Virus record (IMG/VR): IMGVR_UViG_2695420744_000004 | Span: 1-13,324 of that record | DNA: 13,324 nt | Direction: 5' to 3' (one strand) | Source of the DNA: a virus | Taxonomy: Duplodnaviria; Heunggongvirae; Uroviricota; Caudoviricetes | Part shown: positions 1 to 6,513 of the stretch, one piece after another | How the letters are laid out: every line of letters starts with the position of its first letter | How positions within the stretch are numbered: position 1 is the stretch's first letter | The notes under the pieces: generated by a model | What the model was told of the DNA's origin: nothing | The model's input: the letters and a program-made list of their open reading frames with translations, nothing else | Databases searched by the model: none | Made by a program: the position numbers and the translations under genes

Positions 1-5
1 ACTTT

Positions 6-63
6 AAAAAGGGCGGCAGAGCAGTCACGGAGTAAAACTGATACCGCCAAACGTCACCAGAAA
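6..63 (-). ncRNA. dicF: DicF-like small RNA, 3' portion with terminator at the window edge
   Basis: The minus-strand reading of 63..1 is UUUCUGGUGACGUUUGGCGGUAUCAGUUUUACUCCGUGACUGCUCUGCCGCCCUUUUUAAAGU, which matches my recollection of the ~53-nt E. coli DicF RNA. It has GGCGG/CCGCC pairing and ends in a U-run like an intrinsic terminator. It lies at the distal end of the leftward early operon, as dicF does in Qin. Recalled, not searched. Confidence 0.6.
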
Positions 64-305
64 ATGGATAACAGAGGGCGTTGCAGCGTGGTTGTCTCTT
101 AAGCGTATGGTCAACCTGACAACCCGGTGCTCCACAGGGGGAGAAGAGTACCCCCGCCATACTTACCGCCGCGCCGTTTCGCGGATTGCCACAACCGGGA
201 GCGCACGGTCGACGAAAATTTAACGACAAGCCATCTATGAACCAGAAACCTCGCCGTGCGCTTTCGTGTTGTGTGCCTGCTTTTAACCACGTCAGGCGAG
301 GTGGT

Positions 306-334
306 ATCCTTAAAATCACCACAGTTTTAAGGAT
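306..334. promoter_or_regulatory. perfect 10-bp inverted repeat (ATCCTTAAAA / TTTTAAGGAT, 9-bp spacer) just upstream of the 345 start codon
   Basis: Arms at 306-315 and 325-334 are exact reverse complements. No U-run follows on either strand, so a protein-binding site or RNA structure is more likely than a terminator. Confidence 0.3.
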
Positions 335-344
335 TCATTAAGCA

Positions 345-665
345 ATGTCGCAACCACCAATAAATCCACTTAAGAACATGAAAATTGATTACTGGTATAA
401 AGCGCTTACAGTTGTTGGCGCTGCGTTGTTTGTCTTTAATGGAACGTCTTTTTTCGACAGATATCCCGTTGTTCCATTGGGTTTTTTGTCCTCCGGCATC
501 TTTTTTATTGGTTTGGGAGAGTGGATTAACCACCCTCTCAAAGTGAGATTTATTGGTCCTGGAGTTTGGGCTCGTGGATATAACCGTTCTTCGTGCTCAC
601 TCGGTATCATCTTCGACATACTTGGTTGTTTCCTGATTGTTACAGGAGTCGTCAAGTTCTTCTGA
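345..665 (+). CDS. small integral membrane protein (about three hydrophobic helices), possibly superinfection-exclusion-like given its sieB-like position
   Basis: 106-aa ORF with three hydrophobic stretches (ALTVVGAALFVF, VVPLGFLSSGIFFIGLGEW, SLGIIFDILGCFLIVTGVV). It is on the opposite strand to the flanking leftward early genes, as sieB is in Rac. Function is inferred from position only. Confidence 0.5.
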   Translation: MSQPPINPLKNMKIDYWYKALTVVGAALFVFNGTSFFDRYPVVPLGFLSSGIFFIGLGEWINHPLKVRFIGPGVWARGYNRSSCSLGIIFDILGCFLIVTGVVKFF

Positions 666-902
666 TGTAAAACCGCAAATGGGGCACGTAACGGGAATTT
701 TGAAAAGCGTTTCTCCGGGTTCCAGAACAAAATTTTCTGCGGTCTGATTTTGCTTCTCATATTTGTGCTCCGCGTCATTGTGAGAGCACATTCTTATTCT
801 GAGTGCCTGTTTAAACTCACTGAAGCTGAGAGCTTCTTCGCCTTCGGCAAGGCCTTCGAAGTATTCTTCGTAAGCCTTTTCCATGATTGTGTCGAAATCC
901 AT
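597..902 (-). CDS. hypothetical early-left protein (101 aa, acidic N-terminus, C-terminal CPICG motif)
   Basis: ATG at 902 sits one nucleotide after the upstream gene's stop (TGAtATG) with an AGGTGA Shine-Dalgarno inside that gene's end, indicating translational coupling. The 3' end overlaps the convergent membrane-protein ORF by 69 nt. Confidence 0.45.
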   Translation of the reverse strand: MDFDTIMEKAYEEYFEGLAEGEEALSFSEFKQALRIRMCSHNDAEHKYEKQNQTAENFVLEPGETLFKIPVTCPICGFTSEELDDSCNNQETTKYVEDDTE

Positions 903-903
903 A

Positions 904-1059
904 TCACTCACCTGAGTTTCTTTCCAGCCAGCGACGGGCACCATTTTCGGTTTTAAACGTTTTGCTTTTGGTATACGTCATCGCGGTGAACGTACCGTCC
1001 TGGTTGGGGAACACGCCACATACCAGAGATTCGTTGTTGCCAAGATCGATAGTATCCAT
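904..1059 (-). CDS. small prophage early protein, YdaF/YdfA-like (51 aa)
   Basis: Internal ATG at 1059 preceded by GAGGT; product MDTIDLGNNESLVCGVFPNQDGTFTAMTYTKSKTFKTENGARRWLERNSGE. It is the first gene after the PL-like promoter. An alternative in-frame start at 1140 would give 78 aa. The family call is recalled with moderate certainty. Confidence 0.5.
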   Translation of the reverse strand: MDTIDLGNNESLVCGVFPNQDGTFTAMTYTKSKTFKTENGARRWLERNSGE

Positions 1060-1238
1060 GCTGACCTCATTTCCCCTTAACGCCGGGGTAGCGGAACAAA
1101 AACCTGCTGCATAGTTATTAAAGTTGAACCCTGCCGTCATGTTCTTACGCCTCGGGCTGGCTACTTAACCCCTGACCACTGCCTGGTAACTCGAAGTATT
1201 GCCTGGCGTTCTGTGGGGCGGGGTGGGTTGATGAAATA

Positions 1239-1279
1239 ATGATGCACTTTTAAAGTTATGATGTCAACACTTATAAAGT
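1239..1279 (-). promoter_or_regulatory. PL-like leftward promoter with two operator repeats
   Basis: On the minus strand: -35 TTGACA (1267-1262), 17-bp spacer, -10 CATCAT (1244-1239). Operator-like ACTTTTAAAGT (1246-1256) lies in the spacer and ACTTATAAAGT (1269-1279) just upstream, 23 bp apart. The first is the exact reverse complement of the site in the PR spacer (2308-2318). Confidence 0.45.
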
Positions 1280-1291
1280 TAGCTTTTGATC

Positions 1292-1319
1292 AATAAAAAC
1301 CGCCTCGTGTGAAGCGGTT
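1292..1319 (-). terminator. intrinsic terminator downstream of the parE-like gene
   Basis: Minus-strand RNA AACCGCUUC-ACAC-GAGGCGGUU followed by UUUAUUG: 9-bp stem (one G-U), 4-nt loop, U-rich tail, about 17 nt after the toxin stop. Confidence 0.6.
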
Positions 1320-1335
1320 CTGCGAAAAAAGAGGA

Positions 1336-1617
1336 TTATCCAGGAAATTGTCGTCTGGAGTGGGTGACACTTACTATTTCAACACTCGAAGCGGCTACAC
1401 GGTACAGAATGATATAGTTAGGATGAGCTACAATCTCACGCAAGCCAAACGCTCTGTCGCTTGATGGGTATAAGTACGGATGTTCAGATAAAGCTAAAAC
1501 ACATGTCTCAATGCGAATCTTTAGCCTGCGTGCGGCATGGAGATTTTCTTTTGCAATATAGGCTACGATCTGACGTAAATCATCACGTGCAGAAGGTAGC
1601 CATAAAATGGGCAGCAT
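1336..1617 (-). CDS. parE: ParE/RelE-superfamily type II toxin (93 aa)
   Basis: Small basic protein with the typical toxin size. Its start overlaps the stop of the upstream antitoxin ORF. It resembles the ParE2 toxin of the paaR2-paaA2-parE2 system described in E. coli O157 prophages (recalled). Confidence 0.8.
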   Translation of the reverse strand: MLPILWLPSARDDLRQIVAYIAKENLHAARRLKIRIETCVLALSEHPYLYPSSDRAFGLREIVAHPNYIILYRVAASSVEIVSVTHSRRQFPG

Positions 1618-1808
1618 TACACACTCCCGCTAGTCGCAGCAATTTGGGCAATGAGATTTTCCATTTCTGCCATTACATCATCATGAGGAATTGCAGGGCG
1701 CGGATCTGCAAGATTTGCAGCTACTTTTGCACGTAGCCATTCGTTGTAATTATTTTCTTGCTCAACGGTTTCAAACTCAGAAACCATCGGCGAAAGGGCA
1801 GTGTTCAT
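1617..1808 (-). CDS. paaA: PaaA-like antitoxin (63 aa)
   Basis: Start chosen at the internal ATG (1808) preceded by AGGAGG; product MNTALSPMVSEFETVEQENNYNEWLRAKVAANLADPRPAIPHDDVMAEMENLIAQIAATSGSV. Size and sequence match my recollection of the 63-aa PaaA2 antitoxin. Coupled to the downstream toxin. Confidence 0.75.
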   Translation of the reverse strand: MNTALSPMVSEFETVEQENNYNEWLRAKVAANLADPRPAIPHDDVMAEMENLIAQIAATSGSV

Positions 1809-1837
1809 AACATACCTCCTTTGGCTTATGATGTAGA

Positions 1838-2245
1838 CTATGCTCGGTGCCCTTTCTGGGCAGCGAGCCATCTTGCAACAGTGCGCTCCATTGATTCTTT
1901 TTTGTCTTTCATGTCTTTAAGCATTTTTTCTTGATCTTCCTCTGGAAATGCTCCGAATGTTTGAAGCAGTTCCATTTGCCTGGGGCCTATTTTCATAGTA
2001 TCTGGCACCACAACCTGCTCTTCTTCGTTTGGCGGTAACATAAACCAATATGGGGGATAACCCGTTACTTCAGAAAGTTTATCAAGATTAGCTGTTGATG
2101 GACTTGTGATTCCGTGAACCCACTTTTGTACCGATTGCTGGGCAACACCAATCCTGCGGGCTAGTTCTGCCTGCTTAAGTCCTGTTTTTTCCAGTACCAA
2201 TTTTATTCGGTACGTGGTTATTTCAAGGGTGGTCATTCGCTTCAT
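1838..2245 (-). CDS. paaR: HTH (XRE/CI-type) repressor, PaaR-like; first gene of the three-gene operon and in the cI position of the switch
   Basis: HTH motif GLKQAELARRIGVAQQSVQKWVHG. Divergent from the Cro-like gene across an operator-bearing 107-bp region. There is no obvious S24 peptidase domain (135 aa only). The first codon lies about 7 nt downstream of a TAAAAT -10, suggesting a leaderless mRNA. Confidence 0.7.
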   Translation of the reverse strand: MKRMTTLEITTYRIKLVLEKTGLKQAELARRIGVAQQSVQKWVHGITSPSTANLDKLSEVTGYPPYWFMLPPNEEEQVVVPDTMKIGPRQMELLQTFGAFPEEDQEKMLKDMKDKKESMERTVARWLAAQKGHRA

Positions 2246-2352
2246 GCATTCATTTTACATAAAAAAAGTGTAACTAGCACAATCAGCTTAAAGGTGTTGA
2301 TAAACTAACTTTAAAAGTGTATAAATCATGGTGATTCACTGGAGATAACGAT
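2246..2352. promoter_or_regulatory. divergent promoter/operator region (PR-like, and a PRM-like promoter for the repressor)
   Basis: Plus strand: -35 TTGATA (2297-2302), 17-bp spacer, -10 TATAAA (2320-2325) preceded by TG, and GGAGA Shine-Dalgarno 8 nt before ATG 2353. Three AAAG(G)TGT repeats at about 2265, 2290 and 2313, roughly 23-25 bp apart (OR1-3 analogues). Minus strand: TAAAAT at 2257-2252. Confidence 0.6.
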
Positions 2353-2619
2353 ATGCATGAATGTTTAAAAAATAAAATTCACCAAAGAGGGTTATCCCAA
2401 GCAGGTATTGCTCGTTTGATTGGATTACCGCAACAGGTTGTGTCTCGATGGGCTAATGGTCAGCAGGTCCCTGCATCAAGGGTTCTGCAACTTTGTGAGA
2501 TTATGGCGTGGGAGGTTACCCCACACGAACTCCGACCTGATATTTATCCTAACCCAACAGACGGCTTGCCTGCTGAGTTTCAGACTAGCACACAGCCAGC
2601 GACGGGAGTTGATTCATGA
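2353..2619 (+). CDS. ydaS: YdaS-family Cro-like HTH regulator
   Basis: HTH motif SQAGIARLIGLPQQVVSRWANG. Divergent from the repressor and overlaps the downstream ydaT-like start (ATGA). Confidence 0.75.
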   Translation: MHECLKNKIHQRGLSQAGIARLIGLPQQVVSRWANGQQVPASRVLQLCEIMAWEVTPHELRPDIYPNPTDGLPAEFQTSTQPATGVDS

Positions 2620-3041
2620 AAATCAAGCATGAGCACATCCGCATGGCGATGAATGCCTGGGCATATCCTGACGGTGAGAAGGTGCCAGCTGCTGCTATTG
2701 CCAGAGCGTATTTTGAACTGGGGATGACATATCCCGAGTTGCACAACGACGACAGGCACAACGCGCTCTATCTCAACACCCAAAAGATTTTCCGTTGGCT
2801 GGATAAAGACACTCCTGATGCTGTTGAGAAAATTCAGGCATTGTTACCGGCGATCGAAAGGGCAATGCCACCTCCGCTGGTAGCCCGAATGCGCAGCCAC
2901 AGTTCCGCTTATTTTCGGGAGCTGGTGGAGACGCAGGAACGGCTAGTGAAAGATATCGATGATTTCGTTGCATCAGCGATCGTTCTGTTCGACCAGATGA
3001 ATCGTGGTGGTCCTGCGGGTAATTCCGTGGCTGTGCATTGA
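2616..3041 (+). CDS. ydaT: YdaT-family protein (CII-like regulator analogue)
   Basis: 141-aa protein translationally coupled to the ydaS-like gene; synteny with Rac ydaS-ydaT. Family recalled, not searched. Confidence 0.7.
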   Translation: MKIKHEHIRMAMNAWAYPDGEKVPAAAIARAYFELGMTYPELHNDDRHNALYLNTQKIFRWLDKDTPDAVEKIQALLPAIERAMPPPLVARMRSHSSAYFRELVETQERLVKDIDDFVASAIVLFDQMNRGGPAGNSVAVH

Positions 3042-3112
3042 CTGAAAATATTTATACCGGATCGCTTCCGGCAATTCGTGAGTAAAAAGATTCGGTCTCA
3101 GAAGAGGTGAGT

Positions 3113-4153
3113 ATGGCTAATGCCTGGCTCAGATTATGGCATGACATGCCAAATGACCCTAAGTGGCGAACAATTTCCAGGGTGTCAGGACAGCCAATCG
3201 CAACAGTGATGGCTGTGTATATCCACCTTCTGGTGAGCGCGTCACGAAATGTCACGACATGTCACGGCGTGTCACTACGTGGTCACATTGATGTCACAAC
3301 GGAAGATTTAGCAAGTGCACTTGATGTGACGGAAGAAGTAATTGATTCAATTTTGCAGGCGATGCAGGGGCGGGTGCTTGATGGAGATTTAATCACTGGA
3401 TGGGAAAAACGCCAGGTAGCGAAAGAGGATAACGGCAACGTTTCGCAAACCGCGAAATCCCCGGCAGAGCGTAAGAGAGCACAACGCGAGAGGGAAAAAT
3501 TACGAAAACAGAATGAGGGGTGTCACGATGAGTCACGCATATGTCACGACATGTCACTACGAGTCACGACAGATAAAGATACAGATAAAGAATTAAACCC
3601 CACACATAACGCGCGCGTGCGCGAGAGTGCTCCGACCAGTGAATCGAACGGTACGCCGTTGCAGGCAGCGGAACCTGATTACCAGGAAAGCCTGAGCGAA
3701 CCCATCGGGAAGTTTCCGATGGCCGGTGGCTGGCATCCGTCGCCGGATTTTCGACGGCGGGCTGCACTGTGGGGAGTGGCTCTGCCGGAGCCTGAATTTA
3801 CACCTGCTGAACTTGCCGCCTTCAGGGACTACTGGGCAGCTGAGGGGAAAGTTTTTACGCAGGTTCAGTGGGAGCAGAAATTCGCCCGTCACGTAAATCA
3901 CGTCAGGGCGCAGGTTAAACCAGTCAGCAAGGGGGTGCGTCATGCAGCAGCACCAGGTGGCACCGCATCACGGGCAGTTCGGGAAATTCGGGCAGCACGT
4001 GAGCAGTGGGAACGTGAAAACGGATTTGTCAGCGACGGAAACGGCGTGGAAGCTGTGGGAGCTCATGGGGGAGGTTTATTCAAACCGCTGGACTCAGAAG
4101 AACGGGGCCGCACCTTCGAAGCTCTGGATTGCCCAGATTGGCGCGATGACTGA
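3113..4153 (+). CDS. replication initiator (lambda O analogue) with a C-terminal DnaT-like domain
   Basis: Two iteron clusters lie inside the N-terminal coding region. Residues FPMAGGWHPSPDFRRRAALWGVALPEPEFTPAELAAFRDYWAAEGKVFTQVQWEQKFARHV align with the recalled C-terminal domain of E. coli DnaT (…ALWGVAL…YWQAEGKVFHHVQWQQKLA…). AAGAGG Shine-Dalgarno before ATG 3113. The 3' end is uncertain because the frame overlaps the P-like gene. Confidence 0.7.
   Translation: MANAWLRLWHDMPNDPKWRTISRVSGQPIATVMAVYIHLLVSASRNVTTCHGVSLRGHIDVTTEDLASALDVTEEVIDSILQAMQGRVLDGDLITGWEKRQVAKEDNGNVSQTAKSPAERKRAQREREKLRKQNEGCHDESRICHDMSLRVTTDKDTDKELNPTHNARVRESAPTSESNGTPLQAAEPDYQESLSEPIGKFPMAGGWHPSPDFRRRAALWGVALPEPEFTPAELAAFRDYWAAEGKVFTQVQWEQKFARHVNHVRAQVKPVSKGVRHAAAPGGTASRAVREIRAAREQWERENGFVSDGNGVEAVGAHGGGLFKPLDSEERGRTFEALDCPDWRDD
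3241..3297. repeat. iteron cluster 1: six GTCAC(G) repeats at about 10-bp spacing inside the initiator gene
   Basis: GTCAC cores at 3241, 3251, 3261, 3271, 3282 and 3293. Confidence 0.6.
3521..3597. repeat. iteron cluster 2 (five GTCAC repeats at 10-bp spacing) plus adjacent AT-rich tract: candidate replication origin
   Basis: GTCAC cores at 3522, 3532, 3543, 3553 and 3563, followed by AGATAAAGATACAGATAAAGAATTAAA (3571-3597). Iterons next to an AT-rich region is the lambda ori arrangement. Confidence 0.65.
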
Positions 4154-4607
4154 ACAGCAAATCAGGCTGGTCTGCCGTCAGTGCATGGACCGCTGCCGGG
4201 CGGGTGAAACGTGGCCCCCGGACCTGGCTGAGTTTGTTGCGCTGATTTCGGAGAGTGGGGCAAATCCATTTGGTCTTACGGTGGATGCCGTGATGGAAGA
4301 GTACCGGCGCTGGCGCAATGAATCCTGGCGGTACGACGGGAGTGATAAATACCCGTGGCCACAGCCTGTGCTGTACCACATTTGCCTCGAGATGCGCACC
4401 AGAGGGATTGAACGTCAGATGACTGAAAGTGAGCTGAAACGACTTGCAGAACGACTGTTGACCAAATGGGCAAAGAATGTTGGTAACGGCATGAGTGTTC
4501 CGCCAGTGCGACGACAACTGGAAGGGCCAAAACACCCGCCAGGGCCAACGCCAATTGAGTTACTGAAACAGGAATATGAGCGCCGGAAAGCGGCTGGTTT
4601 TGTCTGA
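3942..4607 (+). CDS. lambda P-like replication protein (DnaB helicase loader)
   Basis: The C-terminal two-thirds align with recalled lambda P (ours YPWPQPVLYHICLEMRTRGIERQMTESELKRLAERLLTKW against lambda YPWKSNAHYWLVTNLYQNMRANALTDAELRRKAADELVHM). Strong AAGGGGG Shine-Dalgarno 6 nt before ATG 3942. A later start at ATG 4065 is possible. Confidence 0.8.
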   Translation: MQQHQVAPHHGQFGKFGQHVSSGNVKTDLSATETAWKLWELMGEVYSNRWTQKNGAAPSKLWIAQIGAMTEQQIRLVCRQCMDRCRAGETWPPDLAEFVALISESGANPFGLTVDAVMEEYRRWRNESWRYDGSDKYPWPQPVLYHICLEMRTRGIERQMTESELKRLAERLLTKWAKNVGNGMSVPPVRRQLEGPKHPPGPTPIELLKQEYERRKAAGFV

Positions 4608-4640
4608 ATTTGAGAAATGATTTTGTCGGAGGAAATTTTA

Positions 4641-5354
4641 ATGGAAACCGTTTTTGACGCACTGAAAGCACTGAAAAGAGCCTCTTCACAGGAGGTGTCG
4701 GCCCGCCTTGGAATCAGCCGCGAAGATGCTGTCAACGAGCTGTGGAAGCTGAAACGCCGTGGTGAAGCAGATAACAAGGGGTCGATGTGGTGGCTGACGA
4801 TTGAGGCAACTGAAATGGTCACAAAAACCACTGCGGAGATGCTGATTAACTCAATTGAACAGCATGGTCCTCAGTCGGCTGACGAACTGGCGTTAATGTT
4901 CGGGATTACCTCCCGCCGGGCGAATTCAACGCTGGCAATGGCAATAAGCAAAGGTCGTCTGATTCGAGTAAATCAGAACGGTAAATTTCGTTACTGCCTG
5001 TCGGGCGATAATTTACCAGCAGAGCCGAAAGCTGCATCGGTAACGGAAACTGCTGGTAAAGCCTTTCCTCAGACAGCAGGTGTTGCGTTACCAGTCCGGG
5101 AAGCGGAAACACAGGAAGAAATTAAAACTGAAAGTGTGGCGGTCACAGTGCAGTCACAGCCGTCGTTCACCAGAAAGCATCCGGATAGTCTGATTTTACC
5201 ATCGCTGCATGTGGCTAACCGCGAACTGCGCCGGGCAAAAGGTCAGGTTCAGAAGTGGGAGCGAGTCTGTGCTGCGCTGCGTGAGCTGAACAAGCACCAG
5301 GATATTGTTCGACAGATTGTCGATTCCTCCAGTCGTATTGTGTCGGAAAAGTGA
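4641..5354 (+). CDS. hypothetical protein with two predicted winged-helix-like segments
   Basis: GGAGG Shine-Dalgarno 8 nt before ATG 4641 (the ORF track's upstream start at 4617 lacks one). Function unknown. Confidence 0.55.
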
Positions 5355-5369
5355 TTGCCGGAGGTACTT

Positions 5370-5762
5370 ATGGCAAGAGTATTTACACAGGAAGAGCGGG
5401 AAGAAGTGAAGGCGCGCATTGTGGAATTCGTGCGCCTGAGCGGACGAGAAACTTTTCGACAACTGGCAGATAAAACGGGTGTCAGTAAGACCGCTATTCG
5501 TCGTTTATCTGGTGCGCTTGCGGCCAGTGGTGATGTCTGGCTCTCTGATTGCGGGGTATTTCCATCAGAGCAGGCGTATCGCGTATGGCGTAAGACACCG
5601 GAGAAGGCTGCTGACCCGACACTGATTCGAAAGTTACCTGACGGAGAAATACGTCGTTACAACAGATGGCAGAACATAATTTGTCGTGAGTGCCGCCAGA
5701 GCGAGGTTATGCAGCGTGTGCTGGCGTTCTATCGGGGAAACTTTCAGGAGGTGATGGAGTGA
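5370..5762 (+). CDS. hypothetical protein, possible HTH (QLADKTGVSKTAIRRL)
   Basis: GGAGG Shine-Dalgarno 6 nt before ATG 5370. The stop overlaps the next gene's GTG start. Confidence 0.5.
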   Translation: MARVFTQEEREEVKARIVEFVRLSGRETFRQLADKTGVSKTAIRRLSGALAASGDVWLSDCGVFPSEQAYRVWRKTPEKAADPTLIRKLPDGEIRRYNRWQNIICRECRQSEVMQRVLAFYRGNFQEVME

Positions 5763-6055
5763 GGGTGAGAGTTTATATTGCCGGTCCAATGACGGGATAT
5801 GAAAATTTCAACCGTGAGGCGTTTCACAAGGCGGAAGAGGAACTGAAACGGGAAGGGCATACCGTCTTAAACCCGGCAGTACTTCCGGACGGGCTGACAC
5901 AGCCGCACTACATGGATATTTGCATGGCAATGATTCGTTGTGTGGATGCGATTTACATGCTGAATGGCTGGCAGCGGTCAGCGGGCGCTAAGGCAGAGCT
6001 GGCACTGGCGGAGAAACTGGGGCATGCGGTGATTTATCAGGAGGTGGCTCAATGA
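5759..6055 (+). CDS. DUF4406-like / nucleoside 2-deoxyribosyltransferase-like small protein
   Basis: GTG start 8 nt after AGGAGG; N-terminus VRVYIAGPMTGYENFNREAF…VLNP matches the recalled DUF4406 signature (VYIAGPMTG). Translationally coupled on both sides. Confidence 0.55.
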   Translation: MRVRVYIAGPMTGYENFNREAFHKAEEELKREGHTVLNPAVLPDGLTQPHYMDICMAMIRCVDAIYMLNGWQRSAGAKAELALAEKLGHAVIYQEVAQ

Positions 6056-6513
6056 GAGAGGTTAACTATGAGGCGCTTCGTGAGGCAGCACAAAACTATC
6101 AGTCGACGCTGGCGTGGTATCAGGCTATCCCGGACAGCCCAAATGCTGAACGGGATTGTGATGCGGCTCTTGCTGCGTTTAAGCGTCACATCCGTCATCG
6201 GGAAGCGGATATTATCGCTGATTTGCTGGATGGACTGGAAGAAGCAAAATCACAACTCAACGAGCAGCGTGAGTATTACGAAGGCGTTATCTCTGATGGG
6301 AGCAAGCGTATTGCTGCACTGGAAGCGCGGGAAGTTCAATTACCGACTCGCTACGACCTTCGATATGGACACCCGATAAATGCAGATGAGCGACATGTCA
6401 TGATACCTAAAGAAAATGGCAGTTGGCTTTACCTGATTGACCTAGAACACGCATTACGCGTCGCTGGCATTCGCATCAAAGGAGAGGAGCATGGAAATAA
6501 AACCAGAGGATGA
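6052..6513 (+). CDS. hypothetical nin-region protein ending in the shared C-terminal IRIKGE motif
   Basis: ATGA overlap with the upstream gene and AGGAGG Shine-Dalgarno. Its 3' end carries the 18-nt sequence CATTCGCATCAAAGGAGA that also ends the gene at 6943..7368. Confidence 0.6.
   Translation: MREVNYEALREAAQNYQSTLAWYQAIPDSPNAERDCDAALAAFKRHIRHREADIIADLLDGLEEAKSQLNEQREYYEGVISDGSKRIAALEAREVQLPTRYDLRYGHPINADERHVMIPKENGSWLYLIDLEHALRVAGIRIKGEEHGNKTRG

Follow-up and report, generated by a model that had tools for sequence, protein, structure and literature searches.

Putative 15-bp operators shared by the repressor and Cro-like protein in the PaaR/DicA-type immunity region of a lambdoid Escherichia coli prophage

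The stretch of DNA analysed here, referred to as the window, comprises positions 1 to 13,324 of the IMG/VR virus record IMGVR_UViG_2695420744_000004 (13,324 nucleotides). The genes of the window identify it as the early region of a lambdoid Escherichia coli prophage with an immunity region of the PaaR/DicA type (Table 1). The gene for a CI-like repressor with a Cro/C1 helix-turn-helix (HTH) domain is oriented leftwards and is followed by genes for a PaaA-family antitoxin and a ParE-family toxin, an intrinsic terminator, a PL-like promoter, a ydfA-like gene, and the DicF small RNA. The divergently oriented gene for a Cro-like protein of the YdaS family is followed by those for a YdaT-family CII-like regulator and for replication proteins. 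The start codons of the repressor gene (ATG 2245, minus strand) and of the cro-like gene (ATG 2353, plus strand) are separated by a 107-bp intergenic region. Comparison with related loci makes it very probable that this region is an immunity switch in which dimers of the repressor and of the Cro-like protein share a set of 15-bp operators, and in which the repressor is probably translated from a leaderless mRNA.

Table 1 Features of the window in order of position; promoter elements and operators are predictions
Feature	Position	Strand	Sequence, evidence or comment
DicF small RNA	11–62	minus	Rfam RF00039, 76.7 bits
ydfA-like DUF1391 gene	904–1140	minus	Pfam
PL-like promoter with OL1 and OL2	1239–1281	minus	
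PL-like −10 CATCAT	1239–1244	minus	TTGACA-17-CATCAT; promoter scan, 10/12 matches
OL1, predicted operator	1244–1258	plus	GCACTTTTAAAGTTA; fills PL spacer, includes 11-mer 1246–1256
PL-like −35 TTGACA	1262–1267 (read 1267–1262)	minus	promoter scan; invariant in relatives
OL2, predicted operator	1267–1281	plus	ACACTTATAAAGTTA; 1-nucleotide overlap with PL −35; 23 bp from OL1
Intrinsic terminator	1292–1317	minus	7-bp G+C-rich stem, ACAC loop, UUUUUAUU tail
ParE-family toxin	1336–1617	minus	Pfam ParE_toxin, E = 3.6e-16; ParE2 structure 5cw7_B, E = 2e-36
PaaA-family antitoxin, 63 residues	1617–1808	minus	Pfam PaaA2, E = 6e-20; PaaA2 structure 3zbe, E = 4e-23
CI-like repressor	1838–2245	minus	135 residues from ATG 2245, 132 from ATG 2236; Cro/C1 HTH
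PRM-like −10 TAAAAT	2257–2252	minus	followed by GAATGC, then ATG (A at 2245)
OR3, predicted operator	2257–2271	minus	ACACTTTTTTTATGT; in PRM spacer; centre −19 from 2245
OR2, predicted operator	2283–2297	minus	ACACCTTTAAGCTGA; weak; touches PR −35; only ACAC half conserved
PR-like −35 TTGATA	2297–2302	plus	read from sequence; 17 nucleotides to −10
OR1, predicted operator	2306–2320	minus	ACACTTTTAAAGTTA; fills PR spacer, includes 11-mer 2308–2318
PR-like −10 TATAAA	2320–2325	plus	read from sequence
Cro-like YdaS-family gene	2353–2619	plus	88 residues; Pfam YdaS_toxin, E = 1.3e-10, and HTH_3; Shine-Dalgarno GGAG 2341–2344
YdaT (CII-like) predicted operator	2609–2626	plus	TTGATTCATGAAAATCAA; 0 mismatches to TTGATTN6AATCAA; cro/ydaT junction
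YdaT-family CII-like regulator	2616–3041	plus	Pfam YdaT_toxin
O-like and P-like replication genes	3107–4607	plus	
RusA and Q antiterminator	11906–12957	plus	

The two early promoter regions carry the same short palindrome. The initial annotation of the window proposed that two boxes of the form ACTTT[T/A]AAAGT are reverse complements of each other, and this was confirmed to the exact letter and coordinate for the 11-mers ACTTTTAAAGT (1246–1256) and ACTTTAAAAGT (2308–2318). Each of them is a palindrome of 5 + 1 + 5 bases, and each lies inside the 17-bp spacer between the −35 and −10 hexamers of an outward-facing promoter, one PL-like and the other PR-like. When one mismatch is allowed, ACTTTWAAAGT has three matches compared to 0.26 expected, and none of 200 shuffled sequences reaches this number; the third copy, at 1269–1279, contains one mismatch. 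The 15-mer ACACTTTWAAAGTTA likewise has three matches with up to one mismatch (0.01 expected, 0 of 200 shuffles). The sequence TAACTTTAAAAGTG is located at 2306–2319 on the plus strand and at 1245–1258 and, with one mismatch, 1268–1281 on the minus strand. The surrounding PL and PR regions form inverted repeats of 35 nucleotides that are 80% complementary. The palindrome cannot be extended beyond 11 bp, as its flanks are asymmetric: the 11-mer occupies positions 3–13 of the 15-mer, with the same dyad axis, and is flanked by AC at one end and by TA at the other. Additional repeats at a spacing of about 23 bp, also part of the initial annotation, are borne out by site centres at 1251 and 1274 (23 bp apart) and at 2313, 2290, and 2264 (23 and 26 bp apart).

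The dyad and its repetition are thus as initially described. However, the operator unit is most likely not the 11-mer but the 15 bp around its dyad, composed of an ACAC half and a conserved, non-consensus TAAC half. The operator consensus is ACAC-TTTWAAA-GTTA, and OR3 fits ACAC-N7-NTGT. Three predicted operators of this type, OR1 to OR3, are positioned between the repressor and cro-like genes, and two, OL1 and OL2, at the leftward promoter. In the direction of the repressor gene, the intergenic region reads ACACTTTTAAAGTTA, 8 nucleotides, ACACCTTTAAGCTGA, 11 nucleotides, and ACACTTTTTTTATGT, with AAAAT following at once; all three 15-mers begin with ACAC. If the PR transcript is taken to start at about 2332, the centres of OR1, OR2, and OR3 are at −19, −42, and −68; relative to a PRM start at 2245 they are at −68, −45, and −19. 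The placement of OL1 and OL2 at PL mirrors that of OR1 and OR2 at PR, and the two groups of sites are 1.06 kb apart. Nothing resembling a third OL site is present 23–26 bp past OL2, where the terminator begins.

The predicted sites stand out in a footprint alignment of 11 relatives with repressors 74–100% identical to that of the window, several of which are near-identical to one another. OR1 and OR3 each have 11 invariant columns out of 15, and the PRM −10 hexamer is invariant in all six. In OR2, three of the four columns of the GTGT half are invariant, as is one of the remaining 11. There is no invariant column among the three bases that connect the PR −35 to OR1, and only one of 11 in the gap between OR3 and OR2. 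The related locus L012 (relatives are denoted by L and a number) encodes a repressor with 82% identity and has a diverged intergenic region in which OR1 is kept base for base, and in L022, L024, and L025 the central operator base is flipped from T to A with the rest of the site unchanged. OL1 is conserved in the window-type relatives and its flanks are variable. The OL2 variants ACACCTATTAAGTTA and ACACCTATAAAGTTA (from L011 and L017) are altered in the centre and retain ACAC...AAGTTA, and the OL variants overall keep xCAC...AAGTTA while the centre changes. Because the operator variants retain the TAAC half across the window-type relatives, this half itself appears to be conserved and not merely tolerated.

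The layout extends to a wider family of loci with repressors 60–80% identical, from Salmonella, Klebsiella, Rahnella, Enterobacter, metagenomes, and E. coli O157:H7, which were gathered protein by protein because a scan of genome contigs yielded two loci only. Every one of these loci has three 15-bp OR sites of the form ACAN-N7-NTGT that are 23–26 bp apart. Two OL-type sites are located downstream of the repressor operon in L003, L005, L006, L008, L009, L013, and L014, the contigs of which reach OL; the OL pair was not identified for L004 (Klebsiella), L012, and L025. All repressor and Cro recognition helices of the wider family open with Gln-Gln; those of the window are AQQSVQKW in the repressor and PQQVVSRW in the Cro-like protein. 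The fourth base of the half-site covaries with these helices. Loci that combine Q[K/R]W in the repressor with SRW in Cro have ACAC-type halves, with C at position 4 in 32 of 38 xCAx half-sites. The combination of QQW and WQW is accompanied by ACAG or ACAA in 20 of 20 half-sites, and that of QKW and FKW by mixed fourth bases (L004, L013). Since the fourth base covaries with both recognition helices, the 15-mers are probably read by both HTH proteins.

The repeats could in principle lack operator function, with PL and PR being diverged copies of an ancestral A+T-rich promoter segment in which the palindrome is incidental. The two promoter regions are homologous over the 35 nucleotides, the core is short and A+T-rich, and some conserved bases are also part of promoter hexamers. 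However, conservation is concentrated in the 15-mers, the bases that separate the −35 from the site are freely variable, and RNA polymerase normally puts no constraint on the sequence of a spacer. Furthermore, OR3 is located in a different promoter, PRM, and the diverged relatives keep the layout of three plus two sites. The site sequence follows the locus's own repressor and Cro helices across immunity types, which argues that the repeats are not mere relics of promoter duplication; we consider such an origin without function extremely improbable.

It is also unlikely that the 11-bp ACTTTWAAAGT constitutes the entire recognition element and that the flanking AC and TA are irrelevant. The strong sites in the window are perfectly symmetric only within the 11-mer, and OR1 and OL1 of the window-type relatives retain its inner ACTTT and AAAGT. 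However, HTH dimers read successive major grooves, as in the complexes of the 434, P22, and lambda proteins, and the half-site centres of the 11-mer, about 6 bp apart, are too close for such a dimer. In the relatives, the inner 7 bp vary widely, whereas conservation, together with covariation with the proteins, is seen in the outer ACAN and NTGT. OR3 and OR2 keep ACAC without the inner palindrome, and the inner bases are those that change in OL2 of L011. The 15-bp unit accommodates these observations.

The nearest solved structure for the DNA-binding domain of the repressor is that of the 434 repressor (E = 6.5e-4). The recognition helices of 434 repressor and Cro begin with Gln-Gln. The 434 operators are reportedly 14 bp long, with the sequence ACAA-N6-TTGT, in the Harrison and Ptashne structures. 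The two systems have in common a recognition helix that opens with Gln-Gln-Ser, a motif and operators shared by repressor and Cro, an outer ACA-N half-site, and an A+T-rich, non-contacted centre. The operator of the window differs from that of 434 in its length of 15 bp (N7) and in its fourth base, which is C instead of A. In addition, one half of the strongest sites in the window is TAAC, and the repressor is devoid of a C-terminal S24 cleavage domain. No 14-bp operator of the 434 type, ACAA-N6-TTGT, was found; the sites of the window are 15-mers of the form ACAC-N7-GTTA or ACAC-N7-NTGT.

The closest characterised counterpart in gene order is prophage CP-933P (Sp12) of E. coli O157:H7 (Jurenas et al. 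2021, PMC8630535; Prolic-Kalinsek et al. 2023, PMC9986795), the locus of which was found via the 5′ end of paaR2 rebuilt from published primers. Both regions contain the repressor gene, paaA, parE, a terminator, and PL on the left, and the genes for YdaS (Cro-like) and YdaT (CII-like) on the right. The PaaA and ParE proteins are homologous, the YdaT proteins are 79% identical and have an identical TTGATTN6AATCAA site, and repeated operators are located in OR and at the PL-like promoter. In contrast, the similarity of the repressor to PaaR2 is limited to the C-terminal 46 residues (90–135), which are 59% identical, and there is none in the N-terminal domain. The Cro recognition helix is SPSYLSQM in CP-933P and PQQVVSRW in the window, and both PaaR2 and YdaS are without the Gln-Gln motif. 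The half-site repeats GTTTAGTAA of CP-933P (18-bp type) have no match in the window with up to one mismatch. CP-933P has been described with four inverted repeats (IR1–IR4), three overlapping OR operators, and three OL operators, compared to the three OR and two OL sites predicted here. The boundaries of the mosaic are in the repressor linker on the left and exactly at the YdaT site on the right, and by this comparison the relationship between the two prophages is a classic immunity-cassette swap. Identity of the repressor with PaaR2 was rejected because homology is confined to the C-terminal third and the operators of the two prophages are unrelated.

E. coli O157:H7 has two paralogous paaR-paaA-parE loci (PMC4803016). 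The second of them, L014, encodes the closest full-length named relative of the repressor (66% identity) and is presumably the paaR1-paaA1-parE1 locus of Hallez et al. 2010, to go by the account in PMC4803016. L014 resembles the window in its gene order, with ydfA and ydfB downstream, in its three 15-bp OR and two OL sites, and in its TAAAAT + 6 nucleotides + ATG. However, its operators are symmetric (ACAR-N7-YTGT) and its recognition helices are TQQTVQQW and AQQTVWQW; the two prophages are probably heteroimmune. No published operator map of L014 was found in the literature, where the name PaaR1 yields only papers on type VI secretion.

The dicA-dicC/dicBp region of the Qin prophage of E. coli K-12 (Bejar et al. 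1986; Yun et al. 2012, PMC3441716; Ragunathan et al. 2023, PMC10448788) has, like the window, a 135-residue repressor without a RecA-cleavage site, encoded divergently from a Cro-like gene, and operators both between the two divergent genes and at the leftward promoter. The leftward promoter of Qin drives ydfA...dicF-dicB. Because DicF and the ydfA-like DUF1391 gene are downstream in the PL operon of the window, PL is, by gene content, the counterpart of dicBp and would drive these two genes; dicB is outside the window, beyond its left end, and is present in relatives. DicA is a distant full-length homologue of the repressor, of the same length (28% identity over 109 residues, E = 6e-16). Unlike in the window, the DicA helix is P22-c2-like (SHVSVSQW), the operators are TGTTAGTCATAACTAACA-like, and there is no toxin-antitoxin pair behind the repressor gene. 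Operators of the DicA type, similar to TGTTAGTNATRRCTAA, have no match in the window with up to three mismatches. The repressor is therefore not DicA, an identity that was rejected on the grounds of the distant homology and the missing operator motif. The absence of both the CP-933P and the Qin motifs from the window indicates an immunity specificity different from those of the two prophages.

The general plan is that of phage lambda: an OR of three sites located between the divergent genes for repressor and Cro, an OL at the PL promoter, probably a leaderless repressor mRNA from PRM, and accessory genes behind the repressor gene, which are rexAB in lambda and paaA-parE in the window. However, the repressor, Cro, and CII of lambda are unrelated or only distantly related to the proteins of the window. 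There are two OL sites instead of three, the operators are 15 bp instead of 17 bp, and the repressor is not RecA-cleavable.

Experiments with CP-933P bear on which proteins read the sites. Overlapping OR sites are protected by PaaR2 and by YdaS in footprints, and each of the two proteins represses the PL-like promoter (PMC8630535). The complex of PaaA and ParE is reported to repress the paaR promoter partially (Hallez 2010, as summarised in PMC4803016). From this summary it is conceivable that the sites of the window are read by the toxin-antitoxin complex, or by one regulator only, and are not shared by repressor and Cro, and the difference between ACAC/TAAC in OR1 and OL and ACAC/ACAT in OR3 could mean different protein preferences. 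However, the recognition helices of both regulators start with Gln-Gln and both covary with the fourth base of the operator, and the same region of CP-933P is bound by the two proteins. Moreover, L005, L006, L009, and L012 are without the toxin-antitoxin pair and keep the operator layout, which argues that the PaaA–ParE complex is not the main reader. A single reader has a low probability, and sharing of the operators by the repressor and the Cro-like protein is favoured.

The PL promoter was called by a promoter scan, whereas PR and PRM were placed by eye and by conservation. The PL −10 is variable in the relatives (CATTCT, CATCCT), with A2 and T6 retained. The PR −35 is partly conserved, with three of six columns invariant; it is mostly TTGATN, with TTGCAA and TTGTTA in two relatives. 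The position of the PR −10 is occupied by TATAAG, TATATT, or TACATT in relatives, and the window offers an alternative PR −10, ATAAAT at 2321–2326, preceded by TG at 2318–2319.

The predicted structure of the repressor comprises an HTH domain (residues 6–69), a flexible linker modelled with low confidence, and two C-terminal helices. A Pfam search of the repressor gives HTH families only, and Peptidase_S24 with its Ala-Gly cleavage site is absent. A fold search with the repressor model retrieved only generic Cro/C1 HTH domains, and none of the solved structures matched the C-terminal domain. The A of ATG 2245 is the seventh base after the TAAAAT hexamer, in line with the distance of about 7 nucleotides given initially, and the geometry is kept in all relatives examined. 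In ten distinct lineages, an in-frame ATG is located 6–7 nucleotides past a TAAAAT, TAGAAT, or TATTAT hexamer and 3, 6, or 9 nucleotides ahead of a conserved Met. The distance to the conserved Met varies yet the frame is always kept, and the first ATG is for this reason probably the one translated. Neither ATG 2245 nor ATG 2236 is preceded by a Shine-Dalgarno sequence, which is absent in the relatives too. In CP-933P, the leaderless start of PaaR2 was established by 5′ RACE, N-terminal sequencing, and mass spectrometry (PMC8630535), and its GATAAT + TACCAC + ATG has the same arrangement of −10, 6 nucleotides, and ATG as the window. The repressor mRNA is probably leaderless and starts at the A of ATG 2245; the analogy with lambda cI and PRM drawn in the initial annotation holds in these comparative tests and matches the CP-933P experiments.

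The competing possibility is that the repressor is translated from ATG 2236 on a leadered transcript, for example from a YdaT-activated PRE-type promoter inside cro. RefSeq, annotated by the Prokaryotic Genome Annotation Pipeline (PGAP), starts the window-type repressor at this second ATG (132 residues; NZ_CP148445, NZ_CP180600), the Met at 2236 is the family-conserved one, and the PRM −35 is weak. In addition, the YdaT operator TTGATTN6AATCAA has been defined by footprinting in CP-933P (PMC9986795), and its perfect copy in the window, which spans the stop codon of the cro-like gene and the start codon of the ydaT-like gene, implies a PRE-like leftward promoter as in CP-933P. However, an ATG in frame and 6–7 nucleotides past the −10 in 10 of 10 lineages is unexpected if it is untranslated, neither ATG has a Shine-Dalgarno sequence, and the same geometry is experimentally leaderless for PaaR2. 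Moreover, transcripts from PRE and leaderless transcripts from PRM are not mutually exclusive. The YdaT site and the 79% identity of YdaT predict, by analogy, a PRE-like leftward promoter with a second, leadered transcript, and because PRE and PRM transcripts can coexist, a transcript start far upstream would not cleanly refute the leaderless start. Translation from the leadered mRNA instead of the leaderless one is rather doubtful. With the leaderless start, the RefSeq start of the window-type repressor is probably three codons short, and RefSeq starts in this repressor family are suggested to be often 1–3 codons too short. The last cro codons (GVDS-stop) appear to be fixed by the YdaT site, because DNA similarity to CP-933P begins exactly there.

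The sequences, positions, conservation, and covariation with the proteins described above suggest a scheme for the binding of the two proteins to the individual sites, with its order and cooperativity, and for looping, transcription starts, and the mode of induction. The repressor and the Cro-like protein would bind the 15-bp operators as dimers. Repressor on OR1 and OR2 and on OL1 and OL2 would exclude RNA polymerase from PR and PL, since OR1 and OL1 fill the spacers and OR2 and OL2 abut the −35 hexamers. At OR3, in the PRM spacer, Cro or an excess of repressor would shut PRM off. OR2 has only one good half-site, and its occupancy probably depends on cooperativity with OR1 by way of the C-terminal helical domain; a repressor-bridged loop between OL and OR across the 1.06 kb is possible. 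Both proposals are plausible because the C-terminal 46 residues of the repressor resemble those of PaaR2, which is reported to octamerise. The PRM transcript would be a leaderless repressor-paaA-parE mRNA that extends from ATG 2245 to the terminator at 1292–1317, just before PL, and the YdaT site would provide the second, leadered route to the repressor. Because the repressor has no autocleavage domain, induction may occur by an antirepressor or by stochastic switching, as with DicA/Rem and the Gifsy repressors.

Several observations weigh against this interpretation, and the RefSeq start described above is one of them. The support for this immunity type is comparative throughout, and the relatives share ancestry, so that the conservation counts overstate independence and there are fewer independent observations than rows of the alignment. 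The promoter scan of the window called neither PR nor PRM. PR was missed because position 6 of its −10 hexamer is A and not T; TATAAA, without the usual final T, is non-canonical, and so is the weak PRM −35, GTGCTA, with three of six matches. The strong sites are asymmetric over the 15 bp (ACAC versus TAAC), and the NTGT consensus of the family is present only at OR3. OR2 is a poor site, the right half of which is 1 bp closer in some relatives. Its centre is at −45 from the putative PRM start, compared to −42 in lambda, and positive autoregulation of PRM is therefore uncertain. The covariation rule is imperfect: in L004 and L013, both helices contain Lys and the fourth bases are mixed.

OR1, OL1, and OL2 are intrinsically asymmetric, with ACAC always beside the −10, whereas OR3 is nearly symmetric (ACAC/ACAT). 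It is tempting, though with a fairly low probability of being correct, to suggest that this asymmetry rather than affinity encodes opposite preferences of the repressor and Cro, and that the DNA-binding domain is exchanged together with cro and the operators as a single cassette, with the repressor linker and the YdaT site as its borders. The shared chassis around the cassette may then consist of the oligomerisation domain, the toxin-antitoxin pair, and CII/PRE. If so, the series of cassettes would be a natural readout of the recognition code, in which K or R at helix position 7 corresponds to C, and Q to G or A.

The window is an uncharacterised variant of a well-known design; it reveals no new mechanism and would not surprise a specialist. 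Its analysis gives a concrete operator and promoter map for an immunity type for which no published characterisation was found, and it extends the CP-933P/Qin paradigm to a 434-like DNA-binding module with a short, RecA-uncleavable repressor, a probably leaderless mRNA, and a toxin-antitoxin pair in the immunity operon. Since the switch would govern the DicF operon and the ParE toxin, the map bears on prophage-driven filamentation and prophage stability. Of 5,426 complete E. coli genomes, 17 contain the 1.55-kb immunity segment over at least 80% of its length; strain UTME-9 (NZ_CP157110) is one example of a carrier of this prophage. Among sequenced phages, no record contains the region; the top hit extends over 11% of the query, in the flanks. 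The best sequenced-phage protein matches to the repressor have less than 50% identity over at most 69% of its length, with the closest at 48.5% over half and the Gifsy repressors at about 35%. A literature search for the operator string found nothing relevant.

The Cro-like protein also matches a Cro structure, 3bd1 (E = 2e-4). The terminator between parE and PL, which would end the repressor-paaA-parE operon, has a folding energy of −17.1 kcal/mol (z = −4.5), and none of 200 shuffled sequences folds as well; it is not listed by the terminator scan. The start codon of the PaaA antitoxin is almost certainly ATG 1808, with a Shine-Dalgarno sequence AGGAGG at 1815–1820, and RefSeq gives 63 residues in relatives. 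A mechanically called open reading frame at 1617–1871 overlaps the 3′ end of the repressor gene (1838–1871). The cargo between the repressor gene and OL varies: paaA-parE is present in the window, L008, L011, L014, and L017, and unrelated open reading frames in L005, L006, L009, and L012, for example a PLDc_2 protein in L012 and unknown proteins in L005 and L006. The slot resembles a cargo site of the moron type, comparable to that of rexAB in lambda.

Outside the immunity region, the O-like gene contains 10-nucleotide repeats with GTCAC at approximately 3241–3300 (gtcacgaaat, gtcacgacat, gtcacggcgt, gtcactacgt, and so on), which look like origin iterons. Two hok/sok modules, at 8348–8673 and 10083–10408 (sok RF01794, 112 and 120 bits), include Hok open reading frames at 8461–8673 and 10196–10408 and are part of an apparent tandem duplication. 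The duplication also holds two DUF968 open reading frames, of which that at 9121–9834 covers the first third of the model only and that at 10850–11905 is full-length.

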